A stretch of 64,000 nt of DNA from an uncultured Ruminococcus sp. (GTDB taxonomy: Bacteria > Bacillota > Clostridia > Oscillospirales > Acutalibacteraceae): positions 2,547-66,546 of the forward strand of contig CACZWQ010000002.1 in assembly GCA_902784855.1 (NCBI GenBank). The letters are read 5' to 3'. The translations under genes were made by a program, and so were the position numbers. Under the pieces are notes generated by a model. The model did not search any database. It had not been told where the DNA came from and saw only the letters and a program-made list of their open reading frames with translations. Shown here piece by piece: positions 7,404 through 23,930 of the stretch (the stretch's first letter is position 1; each line of letters starts with the position of its first letter).

Positions 7404-9272
7404 TTACAGCTCGGCGATCAAAACCTCACAGCACATGGAATTCAAGTGCAGCCGATTGTCCTCAAAAACGCTGCCGAAGTACGGCGTGGCTTCGGAGTAG
7501 CCCGGCGGCGGTGTGAGGACGTCGTCCTCGTCGGTCAGGTTGAAGGCGCAGTAGATCGACATGTTGTTGTCGTGGCGGATATAGGCGAGCTTTCTGCCGC
7601 GCGAGAACGCCGGGACAAACTCACCGTCCCAGAGCGCCGAGCAGCCCGCGCGCAGGGCGCCGAGCTTTTTATGCCATTCCAAGAGCTCTTTGTTCTCTCT
7701 GCCCCACGGGTAGCAGCAGCGGTTGAAGGGGTCGCGATAGCCCTCCATGCCCGCCTCGTCGCCGTAGTAGACGCACGGAAAGCCCGGGAGCGTATACTGC
7801 ATGGCAGAAGCGAGCTTCATCAGGGCGATGCCGCGGGTGCGCTGCTCGTCGCTGAGGTGCTGATGCGCCTGCCAGCCTCTGTCCCTGCCGTGGAGCGGCT
7901 CGCCCGCCAGCATGGTCAGGGCGCGTTCGGTGTCGTGGGTCGAGAGGGAATTCATCAGCACGCGCAGCACGGGACGCGGATAGTTCTCCACGACGCTCAT
8001 GATCGCCGCCATGGTGTAGCGCGCGTCCTGACCGCGGCAGAAATCCAAGATCGCGCCGCGGAACACATAGTTCATCACCGTGTCAAGCTGATCGCCGAGG
8101 AGGAACTTGCGGCGCGCGCCGTAGCTCTCCTTGTTGCTCGCGTCCTCCCAGACCTCGCCGACGATGAGCGCCTCGGGATCCTCTTCCTTGACGCTGCGGC
8201 GAAGGTTCTCCATGAACTCGTCGGGCAGCTCGTCGGCGACGTCGAGACGCCAGCCGGAATTGCCCAGCCGCATGTACTTGCGGATGATGCCGTCCTTGCC
8301 GTTGATATATTCGTTAAAGGCGGGGTCGGTCTCGACGACCTCGGGCAGGGTATAGAAGCCCCACCAGCTGTGATAGTTGTCGGGCCATTCGTAGAATTTG
8401 TACCAGCTGAAATACGGCGAGTTTTTGTCGCGGTAGGCACCGCCGTCGCCGTAGCGTCCCGAGCGGTTGAAATAGACGCTGTCGCTGCCGGTGTGTGAAA
8501 ACACGCCGTCGTTGATGACGTGGATGCCGCGCGCCTTCGCCTGTTCGCAGAGGGTGCGGAAATCCTCCTCGGTGCCGAGGATGGGGTCGATGCGGCTGTA
8601 GTCGCCCGTGTCGTAGCGGTGGTTCGAGTACGCCTCGCCGATGGGATTGAGGTAGATGCAGCTCACGCCCAGTTTACACAGGTAGTCGAGCTTCTGCGTG
8701 ATGCCTTTCAGGTCGCCCATGAAGAAGTCGCTGTTGGTGATCTCGCCGTGCTCGTTCGGCTGCCAGACAGGCAGGGCATACCAGTCAAAGTTGCGCTGAA
8801 AATCGGTGCGCGTAAGCTTTTTCTCCTCGCCGCTGAAACAGAAGCGGTCGGGGAAGATCTGATACATCACGCCGCCGACAGGCCACTGCGGGGTGGTAAA
8901 GCCTTTTTTGTAGCAGGTGATCTGCCAGCTCCTGCCCGGGTGCTCGGCGATCTCGCTGACCTTATAGGGGTCGGACGGCGAGATATAGCGCAGCCCGTTG
9001 GGCGTGTTCATGCGGAACATGTACCAGTACAGCCCGATGCGGTGCGGCGTGAAGGTGCATTCCCAGATCTCGGTAAACTCGTCAAAATTGCCGCACCAGA
9101 TCATTTTATGATATTCCCAGTTGTAGTCGTAGTCGTATTTGACGCAGAGCTCTACGATCTTGGAGTGGTGCTCGCGCGGCGCGAGGACGCGCAGCGAGAT
9201 GGCGGTGTCCTGCTCGACAGCGCCGAACGGCGTGCGGTAATAGGTTCGTTGTGAATCGAATGGAATCGGCAT
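7404..9272 (-). CDS. Cytoplasmic GH13 neopullulanase/cyclomaltodextrinase-like amylopullulanase
   Basis: YQIFPDRF, GDLKGIT.KLDYL, NHRYDT, WRLDVADEL (nucleophile), GEVWE (acid/base), STHDTER; no signal peptide; start set at ATG 9272 by RBS spacing. Confidence 0.9.
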   Translation of the reverse strand: MPIPFDSQRTYYRTPFGAVEQDTAISLRVLAPREHHSKIVELCVKYDYDYNWEYHKMIWCGNFDEFTEIWECTFTPHRIGLYWYMFRMNTPNGLRYISPSDPYKVSEIAEHPGRSWQITCYKKGFTTPQWPVGGVMYQIFPDRFCFSGEEKKLTRTDFQRNFDWYALPVWQPNEHGEITNSDFFMGDLKGITQKLDYLCKLGVSCIYLNPIGEAYSNHRYDTGDYSRIDPILGTEEDFRTLCEQAKARGIHVINDGVFSHTGSDSVYFNRSGRYGDGGAYRDKNSPYFSWYKFYEWPDNYHSWWGFYTLPEVVETDPAFNEYINGKDGIIRKYMRLGNSGWRLDVADELPDEFMENLRRSVKEEDPEALIVGEVWEDASNKESYGARRKFLLGDQLDTVMNYVFRGAILDFCRGQDARYTMAAIMSVVENYPRPVLRVLMNSLSTHDTERALTMLAGEPLHGRDRGWQAHQHLSDEQRTRGIALMKLASAMQYTLPGFPCVYYGDEAGMEGYRDPFNRCCYPWGRENKELLEWHKKLGALRAGCSALWDGEFVPAFSRGRKLAYIRHDNNMSIYCAFNLTDEDDVLTPPPGYSEATPYFGSVFEDNRLHLNSMCCEVLIAEL

Positions 9273-9527
9273 ATAACTCAACCCCTCAGAAAGTCATATA
9301 TAGTCAATTATATCATATTATTTCGCACAATTCAACTGAAATCGAGCGATTTCCGTCAGAATCACGCAGTTTTCTCGGCAGAAAATGATAGGGTCGCGCC
9401 GCCGGTGCGCTGCGGCGATGAGATGGGGCGGCTTGCGGGATTGCCAAAACTCTGCGGCGACGAATCTGTCGAAAAAGCTTGAAATATGACCGCGGTTTGT
9501 AGTATAATCTAAGATGTGTGCATAGAC

Positions 9528-11483
9528 ATGAAAAAAACGAAACGGACTACGACGATGAAAAATTACGGTTTGGGACAATATGACAGCATCGACGCCTTTG
9601 TCGCGGCGAAGCTGCAACGGCTGGACGATGCGCCCGCGGGCTTTGCCTCGCTGTTTGAGCTGATGTTCAGCGAAAAGGAAAATCTGATGTACGAGCAGAG
9701 TGCGGGCTACCGCATCCGGCAGACGACCTACGGCGAGGCATATGACGATATCCTCCGCCTGACCGGAGAGCTCAGGCGCAGGCTCGCGCTGCCTGACGGC
9801 GCCGTGGTGGGGCTGAGCATGGACAACTCGCTGCTGTGGCTGGAGCTGTTCTGGGCGATTTTGCGCGCGGGCTGGCGCCCGCTGCTGATCAACCTGCGGC
9901 TCAGCGACGCCGACGCAGCGCAGGCGCTCAAAGACTGCGGCGCGCAGGCGGTGATCTCGGACGGAAGGGACTATCCCGTGCGCACGCTCAGGGCTTCGGA
10001 GCTTTCAAAGGACGGCGCGCCGTGCGGGGCGGAAGCCTTCGGCGAGGAGCTGCTGGTGATGTCCTCGGGCACCTCCGGGCATGTCAAGCTCTGCGCCTAC
10101 TCCGCCGAGGAGTTCCGCTGTCAGATCCATGACAGCTACCACATCATCCGGCAGTGCGCGCCCGCCAAAAAGCACTACGACGGCTATCTCAAGCAGCTGT
10201 GCTTTCTGCCGTTCTACCACGTGTTCGGGCTGATCGCCATGTACATCTGGTTCGCGTTCTTCTCGCGCGCCTTCGTGCAGCTCAACGACATGGCGCCGCA
10301 GACCATCGTCAATACCATCAAGCGCCACAAGGTGACGCATATCTTTGCCGTGCCGCTCTTCTGGGAGACGGTCTATGACCAAGCGGTCAAGACCATCAAA
10401 AACCGCGGCGAAAAGACCTATCAAAAATTCCAAAAGGGCATGAAGCTCGCGCGCAGGCTGCGCGGCATGCCCGCGCTCGCCGAAGCCTTTTCCAAGGCGG
10501 CGTTCAAAGAGGTGCGCGAAAACCTGTTCGGCGAGAGCATTTGCTTTATGATCACGGGCGGCAGCGCCATCCGCGGCGAGGTCATCGAGTTCTTCAACGC
10601 CATCGGCTACCGCCTTGCGGACGGCTACGGCATGACCGAGATCGGCATCACCTCGGTGGAGCTGTCAAACGACCGGCGCGTGCTCGACTCCTGCTCGGTG
10701 GGCAAGCCCATGAGCTATGCCGAGTATCAGATCAATGAAAAGGGCGAGCTGCTGGTGCGCGGCAGGGTCATCGCCAAATATATCATCGAGGGCGGAAAGA
10801 AAACCGTCACCGACAAAAACGCGTGGTTCAACACCCGCGACCTCGCCGTCTGTGAGAACGGCAGATACTATATCCTCGGCAGAGCCGACGACCTGATCGT
10901 CGCGCCCGGCGGCGAAAACCTCAATCCCAACCTGACGGAGCCGCAGCTGCTGGTGCCCGGCGCCAACGGCGTCTGCCTGATCAGCGACGGCAGAACGCCC
11001 GTGCTGCTCGTCTCCGTCAACCGCTACAGCACCTCGGCACAGCTCGGCGCGCTCGACAGCGCGGTCAAGGAGCGGCTCGCTTCTCTCCGCCTCACGGGTC
11101 AGGTGGGCAGGATCGTCTATATCGCCGACCCGCTGATGCAGGGCGACGAATTCAAGCTCAACCGCAGGCGCCTGCGCGACGACCTGCTCGCGGGCAGACT
11201 CGAGATCGTCGACCCGCACCGCGCGGACGACGGCGCCGGACAGGACGCGCTGATGGTGCACCTGCGGCAGATGATCGCCGTCGCCCTCGACCGACAGGAG
11301 AGCGAGGTCGCCCCGCAGTCCGATTTCTTCGCGGACTTGGGCGGCACGAGCCTCGACTACTTCGCGCTGCTCTCAAAGCTTCAGGAGGATTTCTCGCTGC
11401 CCTTCCCGCAGGACGGCGACAAGAGCCTGAGCACCGCGCAGGAGCTGTATGATTATATAAGGAACACGGAAAACCATGCTTAG
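9528..11483 (+). CDS. Acyl-adenylating (long-chain acyl-CoA/ACP ligase family) enzyme with fused C-terminal carrier domain
   Basis: MSSGTSGHVK P-loop, LPFYHVFG, GYGMTE, WFNTRDL, GRADDLIV..GGENLNP; C-terminal DFFADLGGTSL phosphopantetheine site. Start could also be ATG 9555. Confidence 0.85.
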   Translation: MKKTKRTTTMKNYGLGQYDSIDAFVAAKLQRLDDAPAGFASLFELMFSEKENLMYEQSAGYRIRQTTYGEAYDDILRLTGELRRRLALPDGAVVGLSMDNSLLWLELFWAILRAGWRPLLINLRLSDADAAQALKDCGAQAVISDGRDYPVRTLRASELSKDGAPCGAEAFGEELLVMSSGTSGHVKLCAYSAEEFRCQIHDSYHIIRQCAPAKKHYDGYLKQLCFLPFYHVFGLIAMYIWFAFFSRAFVQLNDMAPQTIVNTIKRHKVTHIFAVPLFWETVYDQAVKTIKNRGEKTYQKFQKGMKLARRLRGMPALAEAFSKAAFKEVRENLFGESICFMITGGSAIRGEVIEFFNAIGYRLADGYGMTEIGITSVELSNDRRVLDSCSVGKPMSYAEYQINEKGELLVRGRVIAKYIIEGGKKTVTDKNAWFNTRDLAVCENGRYYILGRADDLIVAPGGENLNPNLTEPQLLVPGANGVCLISDGRTPVLLVSVNRYSTSAQLGALDSAVKERLASLRLTGQVGRIVYIADPLMQGDEFKLNRRRLRDDLLAGRLEIVDPHRADDGAGQDALMVHLRQMIAVALDRQESEVAPQSDFFADLGGTSLDYFALLSKLQEDFSLPFPQDGDKSLSTAQELYDYIRNTENHA

Positions 11484-12117
11484 TGAGTTTTGGAACGCCT
11501 TTGTGCGCGTGACGGCTTATCCCGTGCAGCTGCCCGTCTTTCGCACCAAGGTCTGTTATGAGGACAAACGCGCTTGCAGCCGCCGCATCAGGGGCGCGGC
11601 AATCGTGATCAGCAACCACACCTCTGTGTGGGATTACGCGGCGCTGATGTTCGTATTCTTCACCCGCACCCTGCGGGCGCAGATGGCGGAGGTCCTGTTT
11701 CAAAAGCAGCCGCTGGGGCTGTTTCTGAAAATGATGGGCGGCGTGCGCGTCGACCGCAACAGCTATGACTTCGGCTTTGTCGCGCAGTCGCAGAAAATAC
11801 TCGAAAAGGGCGGCGTGGTAGAGATCTTCCCCGAAAGCCGCCTGCCCCTCAAGGGCGAGGAGCGCCCGCTGCCGTTCAAGCCGAGCGCCGCGTATCTTGC
11901 GCTGCTCAGCGGCGCGCCCGTCATCCCCGTCTATACCAACGGCGCGTATTTTTGCAGGGCGCGCGCCCGCGTCATCATCGGCAAGCCGATCTATGCGCGC
12001 GAGCTGTGCGACGCGGCGCTCTCGGAAAAAGAGAACATCGAACGCGTCTCCGTATATCTGCGGGAAAAAATCATCAGTCTGGAGAGACAACTCAATGAAC
12101 GAACCGCAAAAAGCTAA
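11476..12117 (+). CDS. PlsC-like (lysophospholipid) acyltransferase 1
   Basis: NHTSVWD (HX4D), FPES, APVIPV motifs. Confidence 0.88.
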   Translation: MLSEFWNAFVRVTAYPVQLPVFRTKVCYEDKRACSRRIRGAAIVISNHTSVWDYAALMFVFFTRTLRAQMAEVLFQKQPLGLFLKMMGGVRVDRNSYDFGFVAQSQKILEKGGVVEIFPESRLPLKGEERPLPFKPSAAYLALLSGAPVIPVYTNGAYFCRARARVIIGKPIYARELCDAALSEKENIERVSVYLREKIISLERQLNERTAKS

Positions 12118-12739
12118 ATTATTTTCCCTGCGCTGCTTCGTGATGGATTTTATCCGCGTCTCGGGCGCGCTGCCGGGCTTGCTCTGGCTGCGGCCGAAGA
12201 TCCGCTACGCATCAAAAAAGGCGAAAAAGCGCATTCGCGGCGGCGCGCTGGTCATTTCCAATCACACCAGCTTCGTCGACCCCGGCTACACGATGTTCGT
12301 GTTCTGGTACCGCCGCCAGTATTTCGTCTGTCACAAGGCGTTTATGGAGACGAAGGCGGGACCCTTCTTCCACGCGGCGGGCTGCCTGATCCCGATCGAC
12401 GCCGACAACTTCAACATCGGGTCGTTCCGCGCGATCACCGACAGCCTGAAAGCGGGAAAGGTCGTCACGCTCTTTCCCGAGGGACACGTCAACGGCGGCG
12501 AGATGATGGAATTCAAGTCGGGCATGGTGCTGATCTCCATGCAGAGCAAGCGCCCGATCGTGCCCGTCTATCTCAAGCCGCGCAAGCATTGGTGCAGCCG
12601 CCTGAAAGCGGTCGTCGGCGAGCCGGTCGATATCACCGCGCTGTGCGGCGGCATGCCCGCGTTCTCGAAGATCGAGGAGATCACGCGGCTGCTGCGGGAA
12701 AGAGAAGCCGAGCTGGAAGAGCTGGCAAAGAAATTGTAA
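12095..12739 (+). CDS. PlsC-like acyltransferase 2
   Basis: NHTSFVD (HX4D), FPEG, FKSG, PIVPV; ATG 12095 overlaps the previous gene. Confidence 0.88.
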   Translation: MNEPQKAKLFSLRCFVMDFIRVSGALPGLLWLRPKIRYASKKAKKRIRGGALVISNHTSFVDPGYTMFVFWYRRQYFVCHKAFMETKAGPFFHAAGCLIPIDADNFNIGSFRAITDSLKAGKVVTLFPEGHVNGGEMMEFKSGMVLISMQSKRPIVPVYLKPRKHWCSRLKAVVGEPVDITALCGGMPAFSKIEEITRLLREREAELEELAKKL

Positions 12740-12774
12740 TCCATAAAGTTTTTATATAGAAAAGGGGTAAAGCT

Positions 12775-14289
12775 ATGAAAGCCGATACACTGGAATTATA
12801 CCGCACCTATACGGGCGACGAGACCTTTAACCGCATCAAGCACTACGAGACCGTGGCGCAGATGTGGGAGGATCGCGCCGCCGAATATGCCGACCTGACC
12901 GCGATCGCGGACGACGGCAAAACCTATACCTTCCGTCAGCTTCAAGAGGACGTCGCACATTTTCGCGCCGTGCTGCGCGAGAGCGGCGTCGAACAGGGAC
13001 AGCGGGTCGCCCTGCTGATTCCCAACTCCTATGACTTTGTCAAGGCGTATCTCGCGGCGGTCACCGCGGGCTGCACGGCAGTCATCCTGCCCGCGCATTT
13101 GGATGAAAAGGCGGTCTACGGCACCTCGATGATGTTCGGCTTCACCGCCCTGATCACCGCGCCCGCCACCGAAAATGCCGCTGCGCTGCTCAGGCAGCTC
13201 CGCCCCGAGGTCACCCTGATCGGGACCGAGACGGCGTCCGAGGAAGCTTCTCCCGCCGCAGTGTGCGCGGGCAGCGACGGCTGCACCGTCATCATGACGG
13301 GCGGCACCACGGGAAAGCCCAAGGGCGCGCTGCTTTCCAACACCGCCGTGCTGCAGGGCGTGGTCAACAGCTGCCTCGGCGTGCCCGGCACCTTTGAACA
13401 GCGCTATCTGCTGGTGCTGCCGCTCTCCCATGTGTTCGGACTTATCCGCAACCTGCTCGCCTCTCTCTACTCGGGCAGCACGCTGATGATCTGCCGCGAC
13501 AACAAGAACATGTTCCGCGACGCGGCGATGTTCCGCCCCACCATCATGGTGCTGGTGCCGGCGCTCGCCGACATGGCGCTGACGCTCTCCAAAAAGTTCG
13601 GCAGGAGCATGTTCGGCGACAGCCTGAAAACCATCATCTGCGGCGCGGCGAACGTGCCTCAGTATCTGGTGGAGGAATACAAAAAGGCGGGCGTCGACCT
13701 CTATCCCGGCTACGGTCTGACCGAGTCGGCAAACCTCGTCTCGGGCAACCCCGTCCCGCTGGAAAAGCCCGGCTCCGTCGGTCTGATCTTCCCGGGCATG
13801 GAGTACCGGATCGTCGAGAACGAGCTGTGGCTCAAGGGAAGCAACATGATGGACGGCTATGTCGGCGCACAGGAGACGGACGCCTATGAGGACGGCTGGT
13901 TCAAGACGGGCGATCTGGTGCGCATGGACGACGACGGCTTCCTCTACATCACCGGCAGGATCAAGGAGGTCATCGTGCTGTCCACGGGCGAAAACATCTC
14001 GCCCGCCGAGCTGGAGGCGAAATTCAACGACCTGCCCTTCATCCAGGATTCGCAGGTGTTTGAGGATATGGACGAAAACGGCAGACACTTCCTCTCGCTG
14101 GAGGTCGTGCCCCGCGCCACCGAGGCAGCCAAGCTCGGCGCCGACGCGGGCAGGATCATCACCGAGGCGCTGCAGGCGGTCAACGAAAAGCTGCAGCCCT
14201 ATGAGCGCGTCAGCAAGATCATCATCCGCGATTCCGATTTCGCCAGAACACCGAGTATGAAGATTGTGAGATATAAAAAATGTCAATGA
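12775..14289 (+). CDS. Acyl-adenylating enzyme 2 (long-chain fatty acid-CoA/ACP ligase family)
   Basis: MTGGTTGKPKG, LPLSHVFG, GYGLTES, GWFKTGDL, GRIKEVIV..TGENISP. Confidence 0.9.
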   Translation: MKADTLELYRTYTGDETFNRIKHYETVAQMWEDRAAEYADLTAIADDGKTYTFRQLQEDVAHFRAVLRESGVEQGQRVALLIPNSYDFVKAYLAAVTAGCTAVILPAHLDEKAVYGTSMMFGFTALITAPATENAAALLRQLRPEVTLIGTETASEEASPAAVCAGSDGCTVIMTGGTTGKPKGALLSNTAVLQGVVNSCLGVPGTFEQRYLLVLPLSHVFGLIRNLLASLYSGSTLMICRDNKNMFRDAAMFRPTIMVLVPALADMALTLSKKFGRSMFGDSLKTIICGAANVPQYLVEEYKKAGVDLYPGYGLTESANLVSGNPVPLEKPGSVGLIFPGMEYRIVENELWLKGSNMMDGYVGAQETDAYEDGWFKTGDLVRMDDDGFLYITGRIKEVIVLSTGENISPAELEAKFNDLPFIQDSQVFEDMDENGRHFLSLEVVPRATEAAKLGADAGRIITEALQAVNEKLQPYERVSKIIIRDSDFARTPSMKIVRYKKCQ

Positions 14290-14537
14290 AACGTAACGAG
14301 ATCCTCGATAAACTAAAGGAGATTTTGCTGTCCGCCGACGCGGGCAGCAGCGCGGTGATCGACTCCGTCACCGAAGACACCCATCTGCTCAACGACCTGG
14401 GGCTTTCCTCGGTCAATATGCTCTATCTGATGATCGCCACCGAAGAGGTGTTTCAGATCCGCTTTGACGACGTCGGCGTCGGCGAATTCCCGACCGTCGG
14501 CGACGTGGTGAGCTATATCGAGGGCAAGCTGTCATGA
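14286..14537 (+). CDS. Acyl carrier protein
   Basis: 83-aa acidic protein with DLGLSSV attachment motif and TVGDVVSYI C-terminal helix; ATGA-coupled on both sides. Confidence 0.85.
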   Translation: MKRNEILDKLKEILLSADAGSSAVIDSVTEDTHLLNDLGLSSVNMLYLMIATEEVFQIRFDDVGVGEFPTVGDVVSYIEGKLS

Positions 14538-15376
14538 AATGGGAGCCTGCCGCCTGTCAGCCGGGCGATATGATCCGCATCCGGCTCGGCAGCTTTTACC
14601 ACTACGGCATCTTTGTCAGCGAGGACGAGGTCATCGCCTTCGGTCTGCCTCCCACGGCGGAGAACCGCGAAAAAGAGGGCGAGGTCAAGGTGCTTGCCAC
14701 CGACATCGACGTGTTCGCCTGCGGGCGCATCGTCGAGACCGCCGTCTTGGACAGGGGCGAGCAAAAGCGCCGCCTGCCGCGCGAAGAGACCGTCGCACGT
14801 GCGCGGGCGCGTCTGGGAGAGGGCGGCTACAACATCCTCCACAACAACTGCGAGCATTTTGTCAACGCCTGCGTTTTCGGTCAGGCGCGGTGCGAGCAGG
14901 AGGAGGACGTGCGCCGTCGCTGGCTCAACCGTCCCGTCTGTGATATCTATCTGGCGGTCATCCCCGAGGGCGTCGACGACGCGGGAATCTATCCCCCGCG
15001 AAGAAAAAGCGAGATCAACGCGATCGCGTCCGAGCGCCTGCGCAACGAAGCGCGCTTCCTCTGGAAGCTGCTCGCCGCAGCGGCGAAGCGCTCCTTCCGA
15101 ACGGACTTGGAGAACGCCGAGCTCAAACGCAAGCTCGGCGGCAAATGGGTGAGCGGGAAGTTCTTCTTTTCGCTTTGTGCGGAAAACGGCGTTGCCGCCG
15201 TCGCCGTCTCCAACGCGGACGTCACCGTCTCATTGGGCGATGAAGCGGGGGCGGGACGAACCCTGAAAAGCCCGCGCATCACCGTCGCCGTCTCGGGCAA
15301 AAACGCCGCCGCTGCCAAGTATTTCCGCGTGCGGGACGGCGCCGTCACCCTGATGGGCGACGCGAATTTTGAGTAG
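14534..15376 (+). CDS. LRAT/PLAAT (permuted NlpC/P60) acyltransferase-family protein with a degenerate Sfp-PPTase-like C-terminal region
   Basis: HYGIFV H-box and YNILHNNCEHF NC-box. The C-terminal GKW...FFSLC..NGVAAVAVS resembles the Sfp GKP...FSLSHS...AVS segment (this second part is tentative). Confidence 0.75.
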   Translation: MKWEPAACQPGDMIRIRLGSFYHYGIFVSEDEVIAFGLPPTAENREKEGEVKVLATDIDVFACGRIVETAVLDRGEQKRRLPREETVARARARLGEGGYNILHNNCEHFVNACVFGQARCEQEEDVRRRWLNRPVCDIYLAVIPEGVDDAGIYPPRRKSEINAIASERLRNEARFLWKLLAAAAKRSFRTDLENAELKRKLGGKWVSGKFFFSLCAENGVAAVAVSNADVTVSLGDEAGAGRTLKSPRITVAVSGKNAAAAKYFRVRDGAVTLMGDANFE

Positions 15377-15388
15377 GAGGTTGTCACC

Positions 15389-16345
15389 ATGGCGCCTTGG
15401 GCGATCATTGTCGTCGCGGCGCTCGCGGCATTCGTCATCTTTCTCGCCGCGCCCGCGCTGCTGATCTTTTTCGCGGTGTTCTACCGCAAGAAGGCGATCC
15501 CCTTTGAACAGTATGACCTCGAAAAATTTAAAGGACACTATTACATCCCCTATCTCGGCAGGATCGCCGCGGCGCGCGGGGCGCTGCAGGCATACGACCA
15601 TGTCGAGGTCGAGACGATCTCCCGCGACGGCTTGACGCTGCGCGGCGATTGGTACGACCGGGGCAGCCGCCGCACAGCCGTCCTCTTTCACGGCATCGGC
15701 GCCGAGATGTACACCAACCTGTCGGCGCAGGCGCTGTTCCTTACCCGCTGCGGCTTCAATGTGCTGCTGACCTGCAACCGCGCCCACGGAAAGAGCGAAG
15801 GGCGCTTTACCACGATCGGTCTGCGCGAGCGCGAGGACGTGGTGTCGTGGGTGCAGTGGGCGGAGGAACACGGCGCGGACGAGATTTTGCTCTACGGCGT
15901 ATCGATGGGCGCTTCCATGGTCGCCTATGCCTCCGACCGGCTGAAAAACACCGCCGTGAAAGCCATGGTCATCGACAGCGGCTTTTACTCGGTGTATGAA
16001 CAGATGAAGCGCGACGCGCACAAGAACCACATCCCCGGCATCATGGTGCCCGCGCAGTGGCTGCTGGCAAAGCTCTTTCTGCGTGTCGATTTGAAGGAAG
16101 CGACAGCCGACACGCTCAGGCGCGCCGAAACGCCCGCCTTCTTCCTCCACGGCACCGCCGACGAGACCGTCGAATGCCGCTGGTGCCAAATCAATTATGA
16201 AGCCTGCGCCGCGCCCAAGGAGCTGCTGCTCGCGGAGGACGCGCCGCACACCCTGAGCATCCTCAGGGATCCCGAAACAGTCGAAAAAAGGCTGAAAAGC
16301 TTTTTTGCCCAATATTTTACCAATGCAAAGGAAGGAAAGTCATGA
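15389..16345 (+). CDS. Membrane-anchored alpha/beta hydrolase 1 (YqkD-like)
   Basis: N-terminal TM; GVSMG nucleophile elbow; HGTAD Asp; APH His. Confidence 0.88.
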   Translation: MAPWAIIVVAALAAFVIFLAAPALLIFFAVFYRKKAIPFEQYDLEKFKGHYYIPYLGRIAAARGALQAYDHVEVETISRDGLTLRGDWYDRGSRRTAVLFHGIGAEMYTNLSAQALFLTRCGFNVLLTCNRAHGKSEGRFTTIGLREREDVVSWVQWAEEHGADEILLYGVSMGASMVAYASDRLKNTAVKAMVIDSGFYSVYEQMKRDAHKNHIPGIMVPAQWLLAKLFLRVDLKEATADTLRRAETPAFFLHGTADETVECRWCQINYEACAAPKELLLAEDAPHTLSILRDPETVEKRLKSFFAQYFTNAKEGKS

Positions 16346-17277
16346 ACAAATTTGTTATTATCGCGGACGGTACCTGCGACCTCAGCGAGGACCTGCTCAA
16401 AGAATTCGACATCAAGGTCGTGCTCGGCTTTTTCCGTCAGCCCGACGGAACCGAGTGCTCCCAGTTTTTGAGCTGGAAGGACTGCACCCGCGAGGAATTC
16501 TACAATAAACTCAAAAAGAATCCCACCGGCTACTCCACCTCTCCCGCCAATCCCGACATGTTCGCCGCCGCGTTCCGCGAGTATGCCCGGCAGGGCTGCG
16601 ACATGCTGGTGCTCACGATGTCCTCGGGCATGAGCGGCACCTACAACTTCGCCTGCGCCGGCCGCGACGCCGTCGCGCAGGACTTTCCGAACGTGAAGAT
16701 CAATGTGATCGACTCCCTGCGCTTCGGCCCCGGCTTCGGCTTGATCGCGATCTACGCCTCCATGCTCCGAAAAGAGGGCAAGGGTCTGCAGGAGGTCACC
16801 TCCCGGATCGAGGAGAACAAGTGCCGCTTCCATCAGGCCGGCTGGCTGGATGACCTTTCCTTCGTCGCCAAGCAGGGCAGGGTCAATCACGCCGCCGCGC
16901 TCATGGGCACCATCGTCGGCATCAAGCCCATCGGCGAATTCGACTACAACGGCATGACCACCGTCATCGGCAAGGCGAAGGGCGCCAAGAAAGCCTACGC
17001 CGTGCTGCTCAAATATATTGCCGCCACGATCGAGAACCCGCAGGAGCAGGTCATCTTCATCGCGCAGACCAATCGTCTGGCACAGGCGGAGAAATTCAAG
17101 CAGATGATCGAGGAGACAATCAAGCCCAAGGCGGTGCGCATCATGGATGTGTTCCCCGGCACGGGCATCAACGTCGGTCCCGGCTTGATGGCGGCATACT
17201 ACATGGGAACGCCGATCACCGAGGGGCTGACAAAAGAAAAAGAACTGATGAACCGGTTCCTCAATACAGCGGAGTGA
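16342..17277 (+). CDS. DegV-family fatty acid-binding protein (FakB-like)
   Basis: IIADGTCDL, STSPANP, SSGMSGTY, VIDS, AKQGRV, IKPI, NVGPG: DegV pattern; adjacent to fakA. Confidence 0.88.
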   Translation: MNKFVIIADGTCDLSEDLLKEFDIKVVLGFFRQPDGTECSQFLSWKDCTREEFYNKLKKNPTGYSTSPANPDMFAAAFREYARQGCDMLVLTMSSGMSGTYNFACAGRDAVAQDFPNVKINVIDSLRFGPGFGLIAIYASMLRKEGKGLQEVTSRIEENKCRFHQAGWLDDLSFVAKQGRVNHAAALMGTIVGIKPIGEFDYNGMTTVIGKAKGAKKAYAVLLKYIAATIENPQEQVIFIAQTNRLAQAEKFKQMIEETIKPKAVRIMDVFPGTGINVGPGLMAAYYMGTPITEGLTKEKELMNRFLNTAE

Positions 17278-17288
17278 TTTGACACGAT

Positions 17289-18929
17289 ATGAGTACGAAA
17301 CGGATCAACGGCTTTCAGCTGGAGCAAATGCTCAAAAACGGGCTTGCCAACCTGCAAAGGCAGGAGGAGGAGATCAACCGCCTCAACGTCTTTCCCGTCT
17401 CGGACGGCGACACCGGCACCAACATGCGCCTGACGCTCGACAACGGCATCCGCTTTGCCAAGACCAAGATGAACGCGGGCGATTATCTCAGGCAGCTCAG
17501 CGAGGGTATGCTGCTGGGCGCGCGCGGCAATTCGGGCGTGATCCTGTCGCAGTTCTTCAAGGGCTTTTATGTCGAGCAGTCGCGCTGCGCGCAGCTTGGC
17601 GTGGGCGAGCTGCGCAACGGGCTGATCAGGGGCTACCGCACCGCCTACAGCGCCGTGGTCAAGCCCGCCGAGGGCACCATCCTCACCGTCACCCGCGAGG
17701 GCATCGAGCATATCCGCTCACAGCTGACCCGTAACACCACCGTGGAGCAGCTCTTTTCGATGTATATCGCCGAGATGAAAAAGACCCTCGCCATGACCCC
17801 CGAGATGCTGCCTGTCCTCAAGGAGGCGGGCGTGGTGGACAGCGGCGCGCTGGGCTTCATCGCGATCGCGGAGGGCATGCTGAAATACCTCTTCGGCGAG
17901 ATCATGCTGCCCGAGGAGAAGGATGAGCAGAAGCCGCCCAAGCAGGTCGACCTCGGCTTGTTCAACGAGGACAGCCCCTTTGAGGACGGCTATTGCATGG
18001 AGTTCATCCTCCAGCTGATGAACGCGCCGAAATACAACCGCCACTTCCGCATCAGCGCCTATATCGAGGACTTAAAGCTCTACGGCAACTCGATCGTCGC
18101 GGTTCAGGACGGCAAGCGCGTCAAGGTGCACATCCACACCCTGATCCCCGCGAAGATCATCACGCTGAGTCAGGAGTTCGGCGAATTTCTGACCTTCAAG
18201 CTGGAAAATATGCAGGTGCAGCACAACGAGCACGACAAGGAGCTGAAGGCTACCAAGCGGCACAAGCTGCTGGCAGTCGTGGCGGTGGTCAACGGCGAGG
18301 GCATGAAGAAGCTGTTCCGCGATCTCGGCTGCGACGTCGTGATCGACGGCGGCGCGACGATGAACACCTCCTCTCAGGAGTTCATCGACGCCTTTGCGCA
18401 GCTCGACGCCGACGCCGTCGCGGTGCTGCCCAACAACCCCAACGTCATTCTGGCTGCCGAGCAGGCGGTGAAGCTCTACGGCGCGGACAACATCACGGTG
18501 CTGCCGTCGCGCAGCGTCGCCGAGGGCTACTTTGCCGTCGCGATGGACGTCAAGAACAGCGACGATATCGCCTTCCGCATCCGGGAGATGCGCGACGGCA
18601 TGCAGAATACGCTGTCGCTCTGTGAGACGACCGCCTCGCGCGATTACGCCTATCACGAGATCAGCTGCAAGAAGGGCGAGGAGATCCTGTTGATCGACCA
18701 TCGGCTCGTCTGCGTCAACACCGACCGGAAGCAGGCGATCCTCGACGGTTTAGCCACCGTGGAGGACATGGACGAGCGCGAGGCGTGCGTCGTGTTCCGC
18801 GGAGAGGATGTCGGCGAGGAGGAGGAGGACGAGCTGCGCGAGGCATTGGAGGAGCGGTATCCGATGCTGGAGACGGAGTTCGTCGACGGCGGCCAGCAGA
18901 TCTATCACTGGATTATCGGACTCGCCTGA
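17289..18929 (+). CDS. fakA: DAK2-domain fatty acid kinase catalytic subunit
   Basis: INRLNVFPVSDGDTGTNM, GARGNSGVILSQ, EGTILTV, VVDSGALG, KVHIHT, GG.TMN.S, GGQ.IY. Confidence 0.9.
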   Translation: MSTKRINGFQLEQMLKNGLANLQRQEEEINRLNVFPVSDGDTGTNMRLTLDNGIRFAKTKMNAGDYLRQLSEGMLLGARGNSGVILSQFFKGFYVEQSRCAQLGVGELRNGLIRGYRTAYSAVVKPAEGTILTVTREGIEHIRSQLTRNTTVEQLFSMYIAEMKKTLAMTPEMLPVLKEAGVVDSGALGFIAIAEGMLKYLFGEIMLPEEKDEQKPPKQVDLGLFNEDSPFEDGYCMEFILQLMNAPKYNRHFRISAYIEDLKLYGNSIVAVQDGKRVKVHIHTLIPAKIITLSQEFGEFLTFKLENMQVQHNEHDKELKATKRHKLLAVVAVVNGEGMKKLFRDLGCDVVIDGGATMNTSSQEFIDAFAQLDADAVAVLPNNPNVILAAEQAVKLYGADNITVLPSRSVAEGYFAVAMDVKNSDDIAFRIREMRDGMQNTLSLCETTASRDYAYHEISCKKGEEILLIDHRLVCVNTDRKQAILDGLATVEDMDEREACVVFRGEDVGEEEEDELREALEERYPMLETEFVDGGQQIYHWIIGLA

Positions 18930-18970
18930 CCCCGTCGCCCGGAAAACAAGCAACGCAAAACGGAGACCTT

Positions 18971-19948
18971 ATGAATATTTGGATTTGGATTTTGATTTGG
19001 ACGGCGTTTTTCTTTCTCGTATTGGCGCCGCTGGTGATCATTCCCACGGGGATGTATGTCATCCTGCTCGTGCGCACCCGCAAAAGCAAGTGGACGCGCA
19101 AGTGCAGCCTGCCCCGCGACAAAGAGATCACCGAGATGTTTCACACCGGCATGGACTGGGCAAAGCGGTATGAGGCGCACAAGCGCGAGGTCGACGTGTA
19201 CAGCGGCAAATATCACCTCTTCGGCGAGTACTTCGACTTCGGATGCGACAGGGCGGCGATCATCATCGCCGGGCGCACCGAAACGCTGCTCTATTCCTAC
19301 TACTTCGCCGAGCCCTACCGCGAAGCGGGCTATAACGTGCTCGTGATCGACAACCGCTCCCACGGCAAGTCGGACGGCAGGTTCAATTCGCTGGGCTATC
19401 ATGAGCACCGCGATATCCTGCGCTGGGCGCAGTTTCTGCACGACGACTGCGGCAACCGCCTCGTGTTTCTGCACGGCATCTGCATCGGCGCCTCCAATGC
19501 GCTCTTTGCGCTCACCGCCGAGGACTGCCCCGGCTATATGCAGGGCATGGTCGCGGAGGGGATGTTTACCACCTTTTACGAGAGCCTGCGTCTCCACATC
19601 AAGGAGCTCAGGCAGCCCACCCAGCCGTCGCTCTTTGCGGTGCGCTCCTACCTGCGCCTGTTCACGGGCTACGACATCAAAAACGACGGTCCGATCTTCC
19701 GCATCGACAGGCTGCGCAAGCCCATCCTGATGCTGCAAAGCAAGGAGGACAAATACTCCCTGCCGCACCGCGCCAAGGATCTCTACGCCAAGTGTCCTTC
19801 TCCCAAGCGGCTGGTGTATTTCGAGAAGGGCGCGCACTCCCACATCAAGATCAACGCTCCCGCAAAATATGACAAAGTTATTGTTGATTTTTTGCGCGAG
19901 ATATGCGATAATAAGACTGTACCCGACAGCATCGTCGGCGATACATAA
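18971..19948 (+). CDS. Membrane-anchored alpha/beta hydrolase 2 with Cys at the nucleophile position
   Basis: N-terminal TM; D.RSHGKSDG; HGICIGA elbow (G-x-C-x-G); SKED Asp; GAHSH His. Confidence 0.85.
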   Translation: MNIWIWILIWTAFFFLVLAPLVIIPTGMYVILLVRTRKSKWTRKCSLPRDKEITEMFHTGMDWAKRYEAHKREVDVYSGKYHLFGEYFDFGCDRAAIIIAGRTETLLYSYYFAEPYREAGYNVLVIDNRSHGKSDGRFNSLGYHEHRDILRWAQFLHDDCGNRLVFLHGICIGASNALFALTAEDCPGYMQGMVAEGMFTTFYESLRLHIKELRQPTQPSLFAVRSYLRLFTGYDIKNDGPIFRIDRLRKPILMLQSKEDKYSLPHRAKDLYAKCPSPKRLVYFEKGAHSHIKINAPAKYDKVIVDFLREICDNKTVPDSIVGDT

Positions 19949-19998
19949 CGCCCACCGGACAGCAGCAGCCGGCTCCCTATGACGGCGGCTATGCATCC

Positions 19999-20304
19999 GT
20001 GCAGAACGCGCCCGTTCCGGGCAGCAACCACACGCAGGTGCTGATCTTCGGCATCATCGCGCTGGCGCTGAGCACCTCCGGTCTGGTCGGTCTGATCTTT
20101 TCCATCATCGCGATGAAGAAGGCAAAGACTTATTTCGAGACCTTCGGCGATGTCTCCAATCAGGCGCGCATCGGCAAAAGACTCGCCCTTGCGGGACTGA
20201 TCGTCAGCATCATCTTTACGGTGATCTGGACGTTCTATCTCATCGGTATGGTGATCCTAATCGGCAACAACACACACACCAGCTATCACTATTCATATTA
20301 TTGA
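19999..20304 (+). CDS. Small two-TM membrane protein (DUF4190-like)
   Basis: Two hydrophobic helices separated by AMKKAK...ARIGKRLA; start uncertain (frame open from 19915, no clear RBS). Confidence 0.6.
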   Translation: MQNAPVPGSNHTQVLIFGIIALALSTSGLVGLIFSIIAMKKAKTYFETFGDVSNQARIGKRLALAGLIVSIIFTVIWTFYLIGMVILIGNNTHTSYHYSYY

Positions 20305-20318
20305 TCGACCGCGTTTCG

Positions 20319-20347
20319 GGGATCGGCTCTTGAGAGCCGGTCCCTTT
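20319..20347 (+). terminator. Intrinsic terminator
   Basis: GGGATCGGCTCT-tg-AGAGCCGGTCCC followed by TTT. Confidence 0.65.
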
Positions 20348-20391
20348 GGAATATTACCCGTAAAACAGGGCATAACAGAAAGGAAAGCAGG

Positions 20392-21396
20392 ATGAAACAG
20401 CAGCTTTCAAAATCCAAGAAGAGAATCAGGAGGGTGAGCGCTATTCTCATCGCGACTGTCCTTTCCTATGTGATCCTGTCCATGGCGGGGTCTGCGGTGG
20501 CATTTCAGCTGATCTTTCCGCGCACCGCGACCGTCCGTGCTTTTGAGCTGACCTATGACGATGTCGACAGCAGCCGCTACCCGCGCGAGGAGATCGCATT
20601 TCCTTCGGGCGAGAACCTGCTGCGCGGCGTGCTCTATCTGCCGCGGGGAAAGCCCGAGGGCTTGGTGCTGGTGCTCGGCGGGATGAATTCCTGCCTTGAC
20701 CGCCACCTGCCCGAGATCTGTTATTTTGTCGACTGCGGCTTTGCGGCGGTCGCCTTTGACAACACGGGCGTCGGGCGCAGCGACGGGGCGAATACGGTCG
20801 GGATCGCGCAGGCGCGGCTCGACGCGGCGGCAGCCATCGAGTATATCGAGCGGCAGCAGCGATTGCGCAGCCTGCCGCTGATGCTCTACGGGCACTCGCT
20901 GGGCGGCTACGCGGCGGCGACGGTGCTGGAGGACGAGAAGGATATCTGCGCGGCGGTCTGTGTGGCGGGGTTTGACTCGCCGAACGGCAACATGCACTAC
21001 AACGCGAAAAAATATGTCGGCGTGCTCGCCGATGTGCAGTACCCCTTCATGGCGCTGCAAAACCGCTTCCTCTTCGGCGACAAGTCGGATACCTCCGCCG
21101 TCAGCGCCATCAACGCGAGCGACAAGCCCGTGATGATCGTCGGCAGTGACAGCGACGAGATCGTCCCCGCGCAGATCAGCATCCTCAACCGGGCGGGGGA
21201 GATCACAAACCCGCACGCGGTCTGTGTGGAGATCAAGGAACAATACCGCGGTGCGCACAGCGCGGCATGGCTGAGCGCCGACGCGGCGAAATACCTTGCC
21301 GAGACGGAAAACCCGACGGACAAGCGCCGCGCGAACGCGCTGGACGAGGGCTTCATGCAGCGCGTCGTAGCGTTTTACCGATCGGCGGTCAACTAA
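20392..21396 (+). CDS. Membrane-anchored alpha/beta hydrolase 3
   Basis: N-terminal TM; FDNTGVGRSDG; GHSLGG elbow; DSDEIV; GAHS. Confidence 0.87.
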   Translation: MKQQLSKSKKRIRRVSAILIATVLSYVILSMAGSAVAFQLIFPRTATVRAFELTYDDVDSSRYPREEIAFPSGENLLRGVLYLPRGKPEGLVLVLGGMNSCLDRHLPEICYFVDCGFAAVAFDNTGVGRSDGANTVGIAQARLDAAAAIEYIERQQRLRSLPLMLYGHSLGGYAAATVLEDEKDICAAVCVAGFDSPNGNMHYNAKKYVGVLADVQYPFMALQNRFLFGDKSDTSAVSAINASDKPVMIVGSDSDEIVPAQISILNRAGEITNPHAVCVEIKEQYRGAHSAAWLSADAAKYLAETENPTDKRRANALDEGFMQRVVAFYRSAVN

Positions 21397-21402
21397 ATTA
21401 TG

Positions 21403-21445
21403 AAACACCGAGGGCGTGCGAGATGATCGCACGCCCTCGGTGTTT
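21403..21445. terminator. Bidirectional terminator
   Basis: Perfect 18-bp inverted repeat AAACACCGAGGGCGTGCG / CGCACGCCCTCGGTGTTT between convergent genes. Confidence 0.8.
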
Positions 21446-22170
21446 TAGGAACGGACAATACATTGACCCAACAGCTCTCCGACCTTGTCGTGATAGATCA
21501 GATCCGCCTGACGGTCAAACGGCGTCTTGTCGCGGTTGATCAGGACGACCGTGTCGCCGCGGAAATAGCGGATAAAGCCCGCCGCGGGGTAGACCGTGAG
21601 GCTGGTGCCCGCGATGATCAGCGTGTCCGCCTGCATGATGGCGTTCAGCGCGCCGTTGACGGTGCTGTCGTCAAGCCCCTCCTCATAGAGCACGACGTCG
21701 GGCTTGATGACGCCGCCGCAGTCGCAGGTCGGCACCCCGCGGCTGTTCTTGATGAATTCCGCCGAATAGAATTTGCGGCATCTGCGGCAGTGGTTGCGCA
21801 GAACGCTGCCGTGCAGCTCATAGACGCGCCTGCTGCCCGCCGCCTGATGAAGTCCGTCGATGTTCTGGGTGACGACCGCCAGCAGCTTGCCCGCGCGCTC
21901 CAGCTCGGCGAGCTTGAAATGCGCCTTGTTGGGCTTTTTGTCGAGACAGAGCATTTTGTCGCGGTAGAAGCGGTAGAACTCGTCGGTGTGCCGCTCGAAA
22001 AAGGTGTGGCTGAGGATCTCCTCGGGCGGATAGTCGTACTTTTGGTTGTACAGGCCGTCCACGCTGCGAAAATCGGGGATCCCGCTTTCGGTGCTGACGC
22101 CCGCTCCGCCGAAAAAGACGATCCGTCTGCTTTTGTCGATGACCTCCTGCAATTGTTCGATGGTGTTCAT
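21445..22170 (-). CDS. cobB: NAD-dependent protein deacylase (sirtuin)
   Basis: GGAGVSTESGIPDFRS, TQNIDGLHQ, ELHG, CRRC/CDC zinc site, KPDVVLY, GTSL.VYPAAG; start ATG 22170 with GGAGG. Confidence 0.93.
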   Translation of the reverse strand: MNTIEQLQEVIDKSRRIVFFGGAGVSTESGIPDFRSVDGLYNQKYDYPPEEILSHTFFERHTDEFYRFYRDKMLCLDKKPNKAHFKLAELERAGKLLAVVTQNIDGLHQAAGSRRVYELHGSVLRNHCRRCRKFYSAEFIKNSRGVPTCDCGGVIKPDVVLYEEGLDDSTVNGALNAIMQADTLIIAGTSLTVYPAAGFIRYFRGDTVVLINRDKTPFDRQADLIYHDKVGELLGQCIVRS

Positions 22171-22308
22171 AGGCAAAACCTCCGTAAAAAACTCAATTAT
22201 ATTATAGCCCCTGCGCAACATGAAATCAATCATATTTTGCACAAAAGCGGGATTTGCGCTCGTTAAAAAAATAACATAAAATATCCTGCGCGACTCCTGC
22301 TAAAACAC

Positions 22309-22337
22309 TTGAAAAATTGAGCAAGTTGTGGTAGAAT
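22309..22337 (+). promoter_or_regulatory. sigma-A promoter of malQ-glgP
   Basis: TTGAAA-N17-TAGAAT with TG before the -10. Confidence 0.6.
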
Positions 22338-22424
22338 TATCTTGATACTATGGGATTTTGGGGTATTTTGACACAAAATCTGTAGAACAATTCACTATTT
22401 CCATCAGAATGGAGTTGATTTTCA

Positions 22425-23924: not shown

Positions 23925-23930
23925 TTGATT

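Follow-up and report, generated by a model that had tools for sequence, protein, structure and literature searches.

The locus considered here raises the question of what a bacterium does with twelve adjacent genes that combine two adenylating ligases, two carriers, two PlsC-type acyltransferases, a PLAAT/LRAT-like protein, three alpha/beta hydrolases, a FakA/FakB pair and a small membrane protein. The genes lie at positions 9528–21396 on the + strand of a 64,000-nt stretch from an uncultured Ruminococcus sp. (GCA_902784855.1, contig CACZWQ010000002.1, positions 2,547 to 66,546); the whole stretch is referred to as the window. A preliminary description of this DNA had listed the same twelve genes as a tightly coupled lipid acylation and scavenging cluster, and all of them were located on the + strand where it had placed them. 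Judged from sequence, they are a conserved, co-oriented unit that is almost certainly transcribed together. We somewhat favour the view that this operon serves to build fatty acids and lysolipids taken from outside into membrane glycerolipids via private carriers. By analogy, it would be an Aas/LplT-like system that has been split, duplicated, extended and joined to a fatty-acid kinase.

The domains of the operon proteins were assigned by Pfam and NCBIfam profile searches. The genes are as follows.

9528..11483, + strand: AT, adenylate-forming enzyme with a C-terminal carrier (thiolation) domain, 651 aa (AMP-binding 1.3e-37, PP-binding 9.7e-08)
11476..12117, + strand: PlsC1, acyltransferase of the lysophospholipid acyltransferase (LPLAT) type, 213 aa (PF01553 8.9e-18)
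12095..12739, + strand: PlsC2, second LPLAT-type acyltransferase, 214 aa (PF01553 2.2e-16; start inferred at ATG 12095)
12775..14289, + strand: Lig, FadD/AasS-like adenylating ligase, 504 aa (AMP-binding 1.6e-61, AMP-binding_C_3)
14280..14537, + strand: private acyl carrier protein (ACP), 85 aa (PP-binding 2.7e-05; NCBIfam ACP models to 5e-12)
14534..15376, + strand: PLAAT/LRAT-like Cys domain (residues 1–125) with a decayed remnant (130–280) of an Sfp-type phosphopantetheinyl transferase (PPTase) (PF04970 5e-19)
15389..16345, + strand: Hyd1, alpha/beta hydrolase of the Ser type, anchored in the membrane at its N-terminus (Hydrolase_4 5.7e-12)
16342..17277, + strand: DegV/FakB-type fatty-acid-binding protein (DegV, PF02645, 6.5e-53; TIGR00762 194.8 bits)
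17289..18929, + strand: FakA-type kinase subunit, DAK2 + FakA_M + FakA_C (TIGR03599 490.9 bits)
18971..19948, + strand: Hyd2, alpha/beta-fold protein with a Cys nucleophile (GICIG) and an N-terminal anchor (Hydrolase_4 / Abhydrolase_1)
19999..20304, + strand: DUF4190-like small membrane protein with two transmembrane (TM) segments (PF13828 9.6e-06, 25.7 bits, under the Pfam cut-off of 35)
20392..21396, + strand: Hyd3, Ser alpha/beta hydrolase with an N-in anchor (Hydrolase_4 6.5e-16)

The intergenic spacing across the twelve genes ranged from -23 to +87 nt. Three pairs overlap (AT/PlsC1 by 8 nt, PlsC1/PlsC2 by 23 nt, and Lig/ACP by 10 nt), and the ACP/LRAT and Hyd1/DegV pairs meet in ATGA start/stop junctions. 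The tight coupling described earlier was borne out by these overlapping codons and by gaps of no more than 87 nt. No credible + strand terminator was found within the first ten genes.

The conservation of the unit was examined with the LRAT protein, for which the protein collection held 355 relative clusters. In a scan of species-representative genomes, 307 stretches encoded an LRAT relative; the best 80 were compared with 10-kb flanks, and synteny was determined by tblastn with all window proteins. The gene order was collinear in 80/80 of these loci (the best 80 of 307), at identities from 90% to ~40%. Apart from DUF4190/zinc-ribbon membrane proteins and Hyd3, no flanking genes were common to the 80 loci. 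Thus, the operon is self-contained, and the synteny search across Clostridia proposed in the preliminary description showed that its genes are conserved together. The carriers were rumen, gut, and faecal metagenome-assembled genomes labelled Ruminococcus, Oscillospiraceae, Acutalibacteraceae, Christensenellaceae, and Lachnospiraceae, and one carrier assembly (L064) was assigned to Butyrivibrio crossotus. No paper on the operon or on a PLAAT/LRAT-PPTase fusion was found in the literature, in line with the earlier remark that the combination was not known as a characterised pathway.

Three architectures were distinguished. In type I, the commonest, the order is AT-PlsC1-PlsC2-Lig-ACP-LRAT·PPTase-Hyd1-DegV-MFS-FakA-Hyd2-(DUF4190)-Hyd3, where MFS denotes a transporter of the major facilitator superfamily. 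Type II has the type I order minus MFS and was found in the window and in L001-L015, L017, and L070. Type III (L046, L057, L071, L074, and L077-L079) reads AT-MFS-PlsC1-PlsC2-Lig-ACP-LRAT·PPTase, sometimes followed by Hyd3, and is without Hyd1, DegV, FakA, and Hyd2. The comparison of the three leaves AT, two PlsC, Lig, ACP, and LRAT as the constant core, with Lig absent from two of the 80 loci. The DUF4190-like gene recurs in the operon, and the relatives often add an N-terminal zinc-ribbon extension to it. In most relatives, the MFS transporter, which resembles the GPH family, is present and the PPTase half is intact; both were lost in the window's clade. Within this clade, every operon gene had a dN/dS of 0.12–0.24, although dS was ~1.2 and saturated, so these ratios are rough and their ranking alone is meaningful. 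The window's operon is, on this comparison, a trimmed variant without the transporter and with a dead PPTase, in a clade that has type II synthesis of fatty acids (FASII), while the rest is under purifying selection.

The adenylating enzymes and acyltransferases retain the residues expected of active proteins of their families. In AT, the AMP-binding domain spans residues 62–417 and the PP-binding domain residues 579–644. Its P-loop (SSGTS..VK), GYGMTE motif, catalytic Lys (EFKLNR), and carrier Ser (GG[TS]S[LI][DE]) were kept in 64–71 orthologs. In Lig, the motifs TGGTTG..KG, GYGLTE (77/77), WF[KR]TGD, and PSMKIVR were kept. Both ligases therefore share a P-loop, GYG[LM]TE, the ribose-binding Asp, and a C-terminal catalytic Lys across orthologs. 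The nearest solved relatives of AT were MenE (o-succinylbenzoate, OSB, ligase), 4-chlorobenzoate ligase, an adenylation-thiolation (A-T) module of nonribosomal peptide synthetases (NRPS), McyG, and carboxylic acid reductase (CAR). When its substrate was sought through these solved relatives, only generic matches to the ANL superfamily were obtained. As AT resembles aryl-acid/OSB ligases and NRPS A-T modules, one branch of the operon may carry a non-fatty acid. Lig matched long-chain-fatty-acid-CoA ligase models with values to 2.5e-64, every one under its cut-off. AasS and acyl-CoA ligases are reported not to be separable by sequence (PMC10522932). What suggests that Lig may be an AasS-type enzyme loading the ACP is the 10-nt overlap of the two genes and its conservation. 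The NCBIfam matches of the ACP itself (to 5e-12) stay under the equivalog cut-offs; its attachment motif DLG[LF][SNT]S was kept in 79 orthologs, and it is 38% identical to the FAS-type ACP of the same genome (contig C33).

PlsC1 and PlsC2 are 31% identical to each other. In PlsC1, the HX4D motif (NHTSVWD) and FPE[SG]R were kept in 73–74 orthologs; no TM segment was predicted, and the protein would be soluble or peripheral. In PlsC2, H..D and FPEG were kept in 75 orthologs. Its top NCBIfam match was the acyltransferase domain of PRK08633 (acyl-[ACP]--phospholipid O-acyltransferase, an MFS-PlsC-AAS fusion) at 2.1e-20, with a score far under the whole-protein cut-off of that model. This match and the MFS gene in most relatives' operons fit the Aas-type logic of ligase, ACP, and PlsC that had been put forward for the cluster. 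The accompanying claim of three parallel fatty-acid activation routes held only at the level of domains; the nearest solved relatives of AT are not fatty-acid ligases.

The protein encoded between the ACP and Hyd1 had been called an LRAT-family protein. Its PF04970 domain and fold agree with that name, which leaves out that the domain is also fused to a dead PPTase remnant. The AlphaFold model (pLDDT 85.6) consists of two parts. The N-terminal domain superposed on PLAAT3, PLAAT2/HRASLS2, and PLAAT4 at a TM-score of ~0.8 in Foldseek (4fa0, 7zom, 4dpz), and the C-terminal part superposed on about half of AASDHPPT/Sfp/PptT. In the LRAT domain, His23 and the NCEHF motif (Cys C106) were each conserved in 80/80 orthologs. 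The residue aligned with PLAAT3 His35 is Ala in the window; among the 80 orthologs, 60 have Gln, 16 Ala, and 4 Glu. Neither a TM segment nor a C-terminal hydrophobic anchor was predicted in the protein.

Relatives of ~345 aa combine PF04970 with PF01648, match AusB/AcpT/HetI models, and carry the motifs GVD[LI]E and W.KKEA.FK. In two alignments (A1, A2), the window's 280-aa protein and its whole clade were short of ~65 aa, including both motifs. By profile search, PF01648 was detected in L019 and undetected in the window's LRAT protein. As the G-x-D-x-E and W-x-K-K-E-A motifs are gone, the window's version cannot be an active PPTase. Within the window's clade, dN/dS was 0.12 for the LRAT domain versus 0.29 for the remnant, and dN was 0.16 versus 0.41. 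These ratios are rough, and we rejected the idea that the remnant is neutral junk, since a dN/dS of 0.29 indicates a relaxed yet constrained sequence; it may survive as a carrier-docking or structural module. Elsewhere in the window's genome, PF01648 occurs once, in a gene on contig C73 for an Sfp-type PPTase whose motifs are intact. The decay of the fused domain coincides with the presence of this presumably functional enzyme, which offers a simple explanation of how PPTase function could be lost from the fusion. The fusion of LRAT to an Sfp-type PPTase and its translational coupling to the ACP gene suggest that its partner is a carrier protein.

Split forms of the fusion also seem to exist. 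In the order-level sample, many genomes had stand-alone LRAT domains of 130–170 aa (e.g., G027:C5:12435-12824 and G245:C2:270428-270781), and G136 and G217 matched only the PPTase half of the profile. The genome of the window, which is of the rumen type, further contains several NRPS-type genes (A-T-condensation and A-T-reductase) on contigs C23, C34, C87, C93, and C116, broken at contig ends. These need an Sfp-type PPTase, and the one on C73 is the single such enzyme.

Hyd1 and Hyd2 are 26% identical. Hyd1 has the Ser-type elbow G.SMG in 65/66 orthologs. Hyd2 has G[IV]CIG in 55/55, and its C171, D260, and H289 are invariant. The Hyd2 model (pLDDT 88.3) was nearest in Foldseek to Pf2001 esterase, DcsB thioesterase, and monoacylglycerol lipases. 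The invariant Cys nucleophile makes a lipase less likely than an enzyme that handles thioesters, either a transacylase or a thioesterase. Hyd3 has G[HY]S.G in 47 orthologs. The topology was assigned by hydropathy and the positive-inside rule, a heuristic, from 39–56 orthologs of each protein. The median number of K+R before and after the TM segment was 0 and 3 for Hyd1 (56 orthologs), 0 and 4 for Hyd2, and 4 and 1 for Hyd3 (39 orthologs). The catalytic domains of Hyd1 and Hyd2 are accordingly predicted to be cytoplasmic, with only that of Hyd3 outside the cell. As only Hyd3 faces outward, the claim that membrane-anchored lipases release fatty acids can apply to at most one of the three hydrolases and was dropped for Hyd1 and Hyd2.

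The extra gene of the relatives encodes an MFS_2 transporter that is distantly like GPH/MelB symporters. No ortholog was found in the window's genome, where the best match was 25% identical (contig C15). The type III transporter is longer than that of type I by ~200 aa (645 aa, e.g., L046:5021-6958, vs 446 aa), and its C-terminal extension had no Pfam match.

The fatty-acid kinase genes of the operon were compared with the lipid genes elsewhere in the genome (2.05 Mb, 94% complete). PF02734, PF21645, and PF13684 all matched FakA, which scored 490.9 bits against the TIGR03599 cut-off of 396.1; DegV scored 194.8 bits against the TIGR00762 cut-off of 99.7. Both fell under the Staphylococcus equivalog cut-offs (NF038248, 359 vs 975; NF038249, 94.9 vs 350). 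The genome has five DegV genes, among which the operon copy shares no more than 29% identity with any other. The operon FakA is 33–42% identical to the other copies. That it might be the housekeeping copy was rejected, as the latter adjoins recG on contig C97 (592 bits; 33% identical to the operon FakA). A third FakA, which is split, adjoins DegV and PlsY on contig C30. By these matches and identities, the operon FakA/FakB is a dedicated paralog pair and not the housekeeping one. The C30 genes (~20678-24487) form a second, small operon for a fatty-acid kinase and comprise PlsY, DegV, and the FakA-like gene in two frames, beside a TetR-like regulator. The FakA-like gene consists of a 449-aa N-part and then a C-part with an internal TGA; it could reflect a frameshift error or be a pseudogene or a shortened form of FakA.

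The preliminary description had suggested checking whether the genome lacks FASII genes. It does not: a full block, FabG-FabF-AccB-FabZ-Acc, is on C30, where FabZ scored weakly because its sequence is partly masked. Outside the operon, the genome also has PlsX, two PlsY, two other PlsC, the FAS-type ACP on C33, and the housekeeping FakA. Apart from the C30 block, a FabF-like ketosynthase gene (408 aa) is followed by an AMP-ligase gene (553 aa) at C6 42592-45513, and a second FabF-type ketosynthase is present in relatives of the window's clade too.

Extended to the other carriers, the check gave a different result. FASII was tallied in the 44 genomes holding the examined loci by counting FabZ (FabZ/FabA, PF07977) and ketosynthases. 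FabZ/FabA was found in 9/44 and not found in 35/44. FabF-type synthases occurred only in G401-G406 (the window's clade), G414, and G419. Outside the window's clade, 34 of the 38 carrier genomes were without both FabZ and a FabF-type synthase, and the absence of FASII holds for most carriers. G433 and G440 had an 800-aa ketosynthase fusion beside a FabZ-like gene and no FabF-type synthase. As a baseline, FabZ was found in 189 of the 401 sampled genomes of the window's order (~47%) and in 158 of the 325 of high quality. Strong LRAT matches were present in 19 sampled genomes, of which 2 had FabZ. Families rich in the operon were poor in FabZ; in family f17, the operon was present in 7/12 genomes and FabZ in 0/12. 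A skew towards FASII-less genomes is what a fatty-acid or lipid assimilation system would predict, and it would explain the operon's own ACP, PPTase, and ligase, which such carriers need to make acyl-ACP.

Two side observations concern FASII. FabZ/FabA was not found in 212/401 sampled genomes (167/325 of high quality), which suggests a widespread loss of FASII in these host-associated Clostridia. The ketosynthase fusions of G433 (C3:15705-19231) and G440 (C3:80593-84079) are ~800 aa long with two KS-like halves and lie next to the FabZ-like dehydratase gene. Similar pairs in G402, G403, G414, and G419 were found, and these pairs look like a separate cluster of polyketide/polyene type rather than FASII.

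In the mechanism that we propose for lipid assimilation, Hyd3 would cleave external lipids at the outer face, and the free fatty acids would enter the membrane, from which the FakB paralog would extract them. The FakA paralog would make acyl-phosphate for PlsY/PlsX encoded elsewhere. In parallel, Lig would load fatty acid on the private ACP in the manner of AasS, and AT would load a carboxylic acid onto its own carrier domain. At the inner face, PlsC1 and PlsC2 would use these thioesters to acylate acceptors of the lyso- or glycerol-phosphate type. Two Cys enzymes, the LRAT-like protein and Hyd2, together with the Ser enzyme Hyd1, might edit acyl groups or move them back and forth from carrier thioesters to lipids. 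In most relatives, the MFS/GPH transporter would import or flip the lyso-acceptor, and the carriers would be converted to the holo form by the PPTase part of the LRAT fusion. Of the overall interpretation given earlier, the conserved unit, the Aas logic, and the dedicated FakAB are retained in this scheme; the lipase role of Hyd1 and Hyd2 is not. A bolder version would make the operon the primary membrane-lipid route of FASII-less Clostridia, independent of FASII and AcpS. It would have its own holo-carriers via the fused PPTase, scavenged fatty acids, PlsC1 and PlsC2 acylating both glycerol positions, and LRAT-PPTase as a new kind of enzyme moving acyl groups between phospholipid and carrier thiol. 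We consider this version rather doubtful.

Several points weigh against lipid assimilation. Like the direction of each transfer, the membrane topology, and the co-transcription, the substrates and product of all twelve proteins are inferred from sequence. No fatty-acid ligase is among the closest solved relatives of AT, which are aryl-acid/OSB ligases and NRPS A-T modules. Simple re-acylation would need less machinery than a pair of carriers and a pair of Cys acyl-enzymes. The transporter of the relatives is GPH-like (MelB family) and not LplT-like, and a search by sequence against solved structures gave no match for it. The FASII tallies are phylogenetically non-independent, with a baseline from one order, carriers from several, and unreported completeness of the carriers. 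About half of the sampled order is without FabZ, and only a few per cent have the operon, which is therefore not a general solution for FASII-less life. Finally, this genome can do without the operon in making its bulk lipids, as it has FASII, PlsX, two PlsY, two PlsC, and a housekeeping FakA.

Some of these points would suit an operon whose product is not the bulk lipid of the membrane but a specialised lipid or metabolite carrying acyl groups, for example, a multiply acylated glycolipid or phospholipid head group, an N- or O-acyl conjugate, or a hydroxy-acid ester. AT would load an unusual block, the PlsC pair and the Cys enzymes would assemble the product, and MFS would export it. Such a role matches an AT closer to aryl-acid/OSB ligases and NRPS/McyG loading modules than to FadD, as well as the paired carriers, LPLATs, and Cys acyl-enzymes. 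A dedicated PPTase fused within the cluster is typical of secondary-metabolite clusters, and the patchy distribution and variable flanks are like those of a mobile biosynthetic cluster. Selection maintains the operon here alongside a complete lipid pathway in the same genome, and the assembly of fatty-acid amides by A, ACP, and C proteins is known from gut Clostridia (PMC13310621). However, the operon gave no profile match to a condensation enzyme, a ketosynthase, a glycosyltransferase, or a head-group enzyme. The FASII-less skew is expected of a nutritional system and not of a signalling metabolite, and FakA/FakB, whose only known role is to feed phospholipid synthesis, is embedded in most versions. 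We regard a specialised product as unlikely, though a serious candidate.

Envelope repair, in which the cell would re-acylate its own lysolipids arising from host or microbial phospholipases, bile, or lipoprotein maturation, overlaps the assimilation that we favour and may be one of its roles. All parts of LplT-Aas are there (the transporter in relatives, the LPLAT domain, and the acyl-ACP-forming ligase) (PMC11416262). By their record titles, all carriers come from lipase- and bile-rich gut or rumen habitats, and the window's clade retains the operon despite its own fatty-acid synthesis. This clade, however, is without a transporter to return outer-leaflet lysolipids, and repair leaves the FASII-less enrichment, the private ACP/PPTase, and FakA/FakB unexplained; as the main function, it is improbable. 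Free fatty acids are toxic to Gram-positive bacteria, and the habitat is rich in them. The several capture and activation modules, plus the relatives' transporter, could serve to esterify free long-chain, especially unsaturated, fatty acids to inert lipids, with MFS export in relatives. Such detoxification seems very improbable: the operon contains no wax-ester/DGAT-type enzyme and no RND or FarE-like efflux pump, the window's clade has no transporter, and the FASII-less skew points to the use of fatty acids and not to their disposal. Each domain family is common in bacterial genomes, which would allow for a chance adjacency of housekeeping lipid genes. The chance of this is negligible and the synteny data refute it, since the same order recurs in 80/80 loci down to ~40% identity between unrelated flanks; the genome has separate housekeeping FakA, DegV, PlsC, and ACP, and the genes are linked by overlapping start/stop codons.

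Among known systems, LplT-Aas of E. coli, which transports and re-acylates lysophospholipids, is the nearest model for lipid assimilation (PMC11416262). In Aas, the ligase makes an acyl-carrier thioester and the LPLAT domain acylates the lyso-acceptor that the transporter supplies (PMC11416262). The operon shares the ANL-type ligase for carrier loading, the PlsC/LPLAT proteins with HX4D, and, in most relatives, an MFS gene. It differs in that its ANL domains (Lig, AT) are unfused to PF01553, the parts are split and doubled (ligases, carriers, LPLATs), and private carriers take the place of the housekeeping ACP. The window's operon is without an MFS gene, and the one found in relatives encodes an MFS_2/GPH-like transporter. 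The operon adds the PLAAT/LRAT-PPTase protein, three alpha/beta hydrolases, and FakA/FakB, and its hosts are Gram-positive-type Clostridia, whereas LplT-Aas is Gram-negative. A 2025 preprint on gut lipid metabolism placed Aas in Gammaproteobacteria only, with a direct acyl-ACP route undocumented in Clostridia (bioRxiv 10.1101/2025.09.11.675017). The kinase genes resemble FakA/FakB of the S. aureus type in having a full FakA (DAK2, middle, and C-terminal domains) and a DegV-family partner. They differ in forming a third, operon-embedded pair, with the MFS gene placed between DegV and FakA in relatives.

The LRAT domain shares with mammalian PLAAT/HRASLS/LRAT the fold, the catalytic His, and the NCEHF Cys, and by analogy may use acyl-Cys thioester chemistry. 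It differs from them in the replacement of the third triad residue (His35), the lack of a C-terminal membrane helix, and the fusion to a PPTase-type domain. The C-part of the relatives matches Sfp-type PPTases (Sfp, AcpT, HetI, AusB, AASDHPPT), whereas the window's remnant is half of the fold with both motifs missing. BAAT, polyhydroxyalkanoate (PHA) synthases, and dienelactone hydrolase are alpha/beta-fold acyl-transfer enzymes with a Cys nucleophile. Hyd2 may be compared with them through its G-x-C-x-G elbow and invariant Asp and His; none of the three was among the 50 Foldseek matches listed for Hyd2. The OaaA/OaaACP/OaaC pathway of gut Clostridia is an NRPS-like route to fatty-acid amides (PMC13310621). 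It resembles the operon in that a free-standing adenylating enzyme loads an outside fatty acid on a dedicated small ACP in gut Clostridia. Profile searches found no match to a condensation domain in the operon proteins or in the relatives' extra genes. As off-loading would be carried out by PlsC-type, LRAT-type, or Cys-hydrolase enzymes and not by a condensation domain, ester rather than amide products are expected.

The boundaries of the operon and its flanks are listed below.

7404-9281, - strand: amylase gene, upstream flank on the opposite strand
9479..9508, + strand: promoter-like site TTGAAA-18-TATAAT, 20 nt 5' of the AT ATG, a consensus match
20318..20345, + strand: hairpin of 12 bp with UUUGG after it, in the gap from DUF4190 to Hyd3; it may act as a partial terminator
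21401..21447, no strand assigned: stem-loop with a perfect 21-bp stem where the Hyd3 and Sir2 genes converge; it probably terminates transcription in both directions
21445-22242, - strand: Sir2 gene, downstream flank on the opposite strand

The putative promoter agrees with the consensus at 11/12 positions and was the top match in a 13.5-kb scan. The 21-bp stem-loop, which begins 5 nt past the Hyd3 stop, folds at -42.9 kcal/mol (z -9.3), and 0/200 shuffles were as stable. The 96-nt DUF4190-Hyd3 gap folds at -32.1 kcal/mol with a z of -2.4, which is weak evidence for a terminator. This hairpin with its short U run, the one notable structure inside the operon, could attenuate read-through to the gene for the outward-facing Hyd3. 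An Rfam scan of 9000-22500 found no RNA family, and its sole weak match ('miRNA') was the terminator hairpin.

New in the present analysis are the association with FASII-less genomes, the definition of type II as a trimmed variant, the assignment of the three hydrolases to the inside or the outside of the cell, the universal Cys of Hyd2, the selection figures, and the bracketing of the operon by a promoter-like site and a terminator hairpin. The PLAAT/LRAT-PPTase fusion and Hyd2, with its universally conserved Cys nucleophile, are good targets for enzymology. The window's clade offers a natural experiment: having FASII and a further PPTase, it has lost the transporter and the activity of the fused PPTase and retained all other parts. 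If the product is a special lipid, its source would be widespread and mostly uncultured gut and rumen Clostridia, and it could act on the host.

It is poorly understood how gut and rumen Clostridia without FASII build their membranes from dietary or host lipids. To our knowledge, the known Gram-positive route (FakAB, PlsX, PlsY, and PlsC) has no step for lysolipid uptake and none leading directly from fatty acid to acyl-ACP. The operon would supply both of these steps, and it is concentrated in genomes that, among those tested, are without FabZ and FabF.

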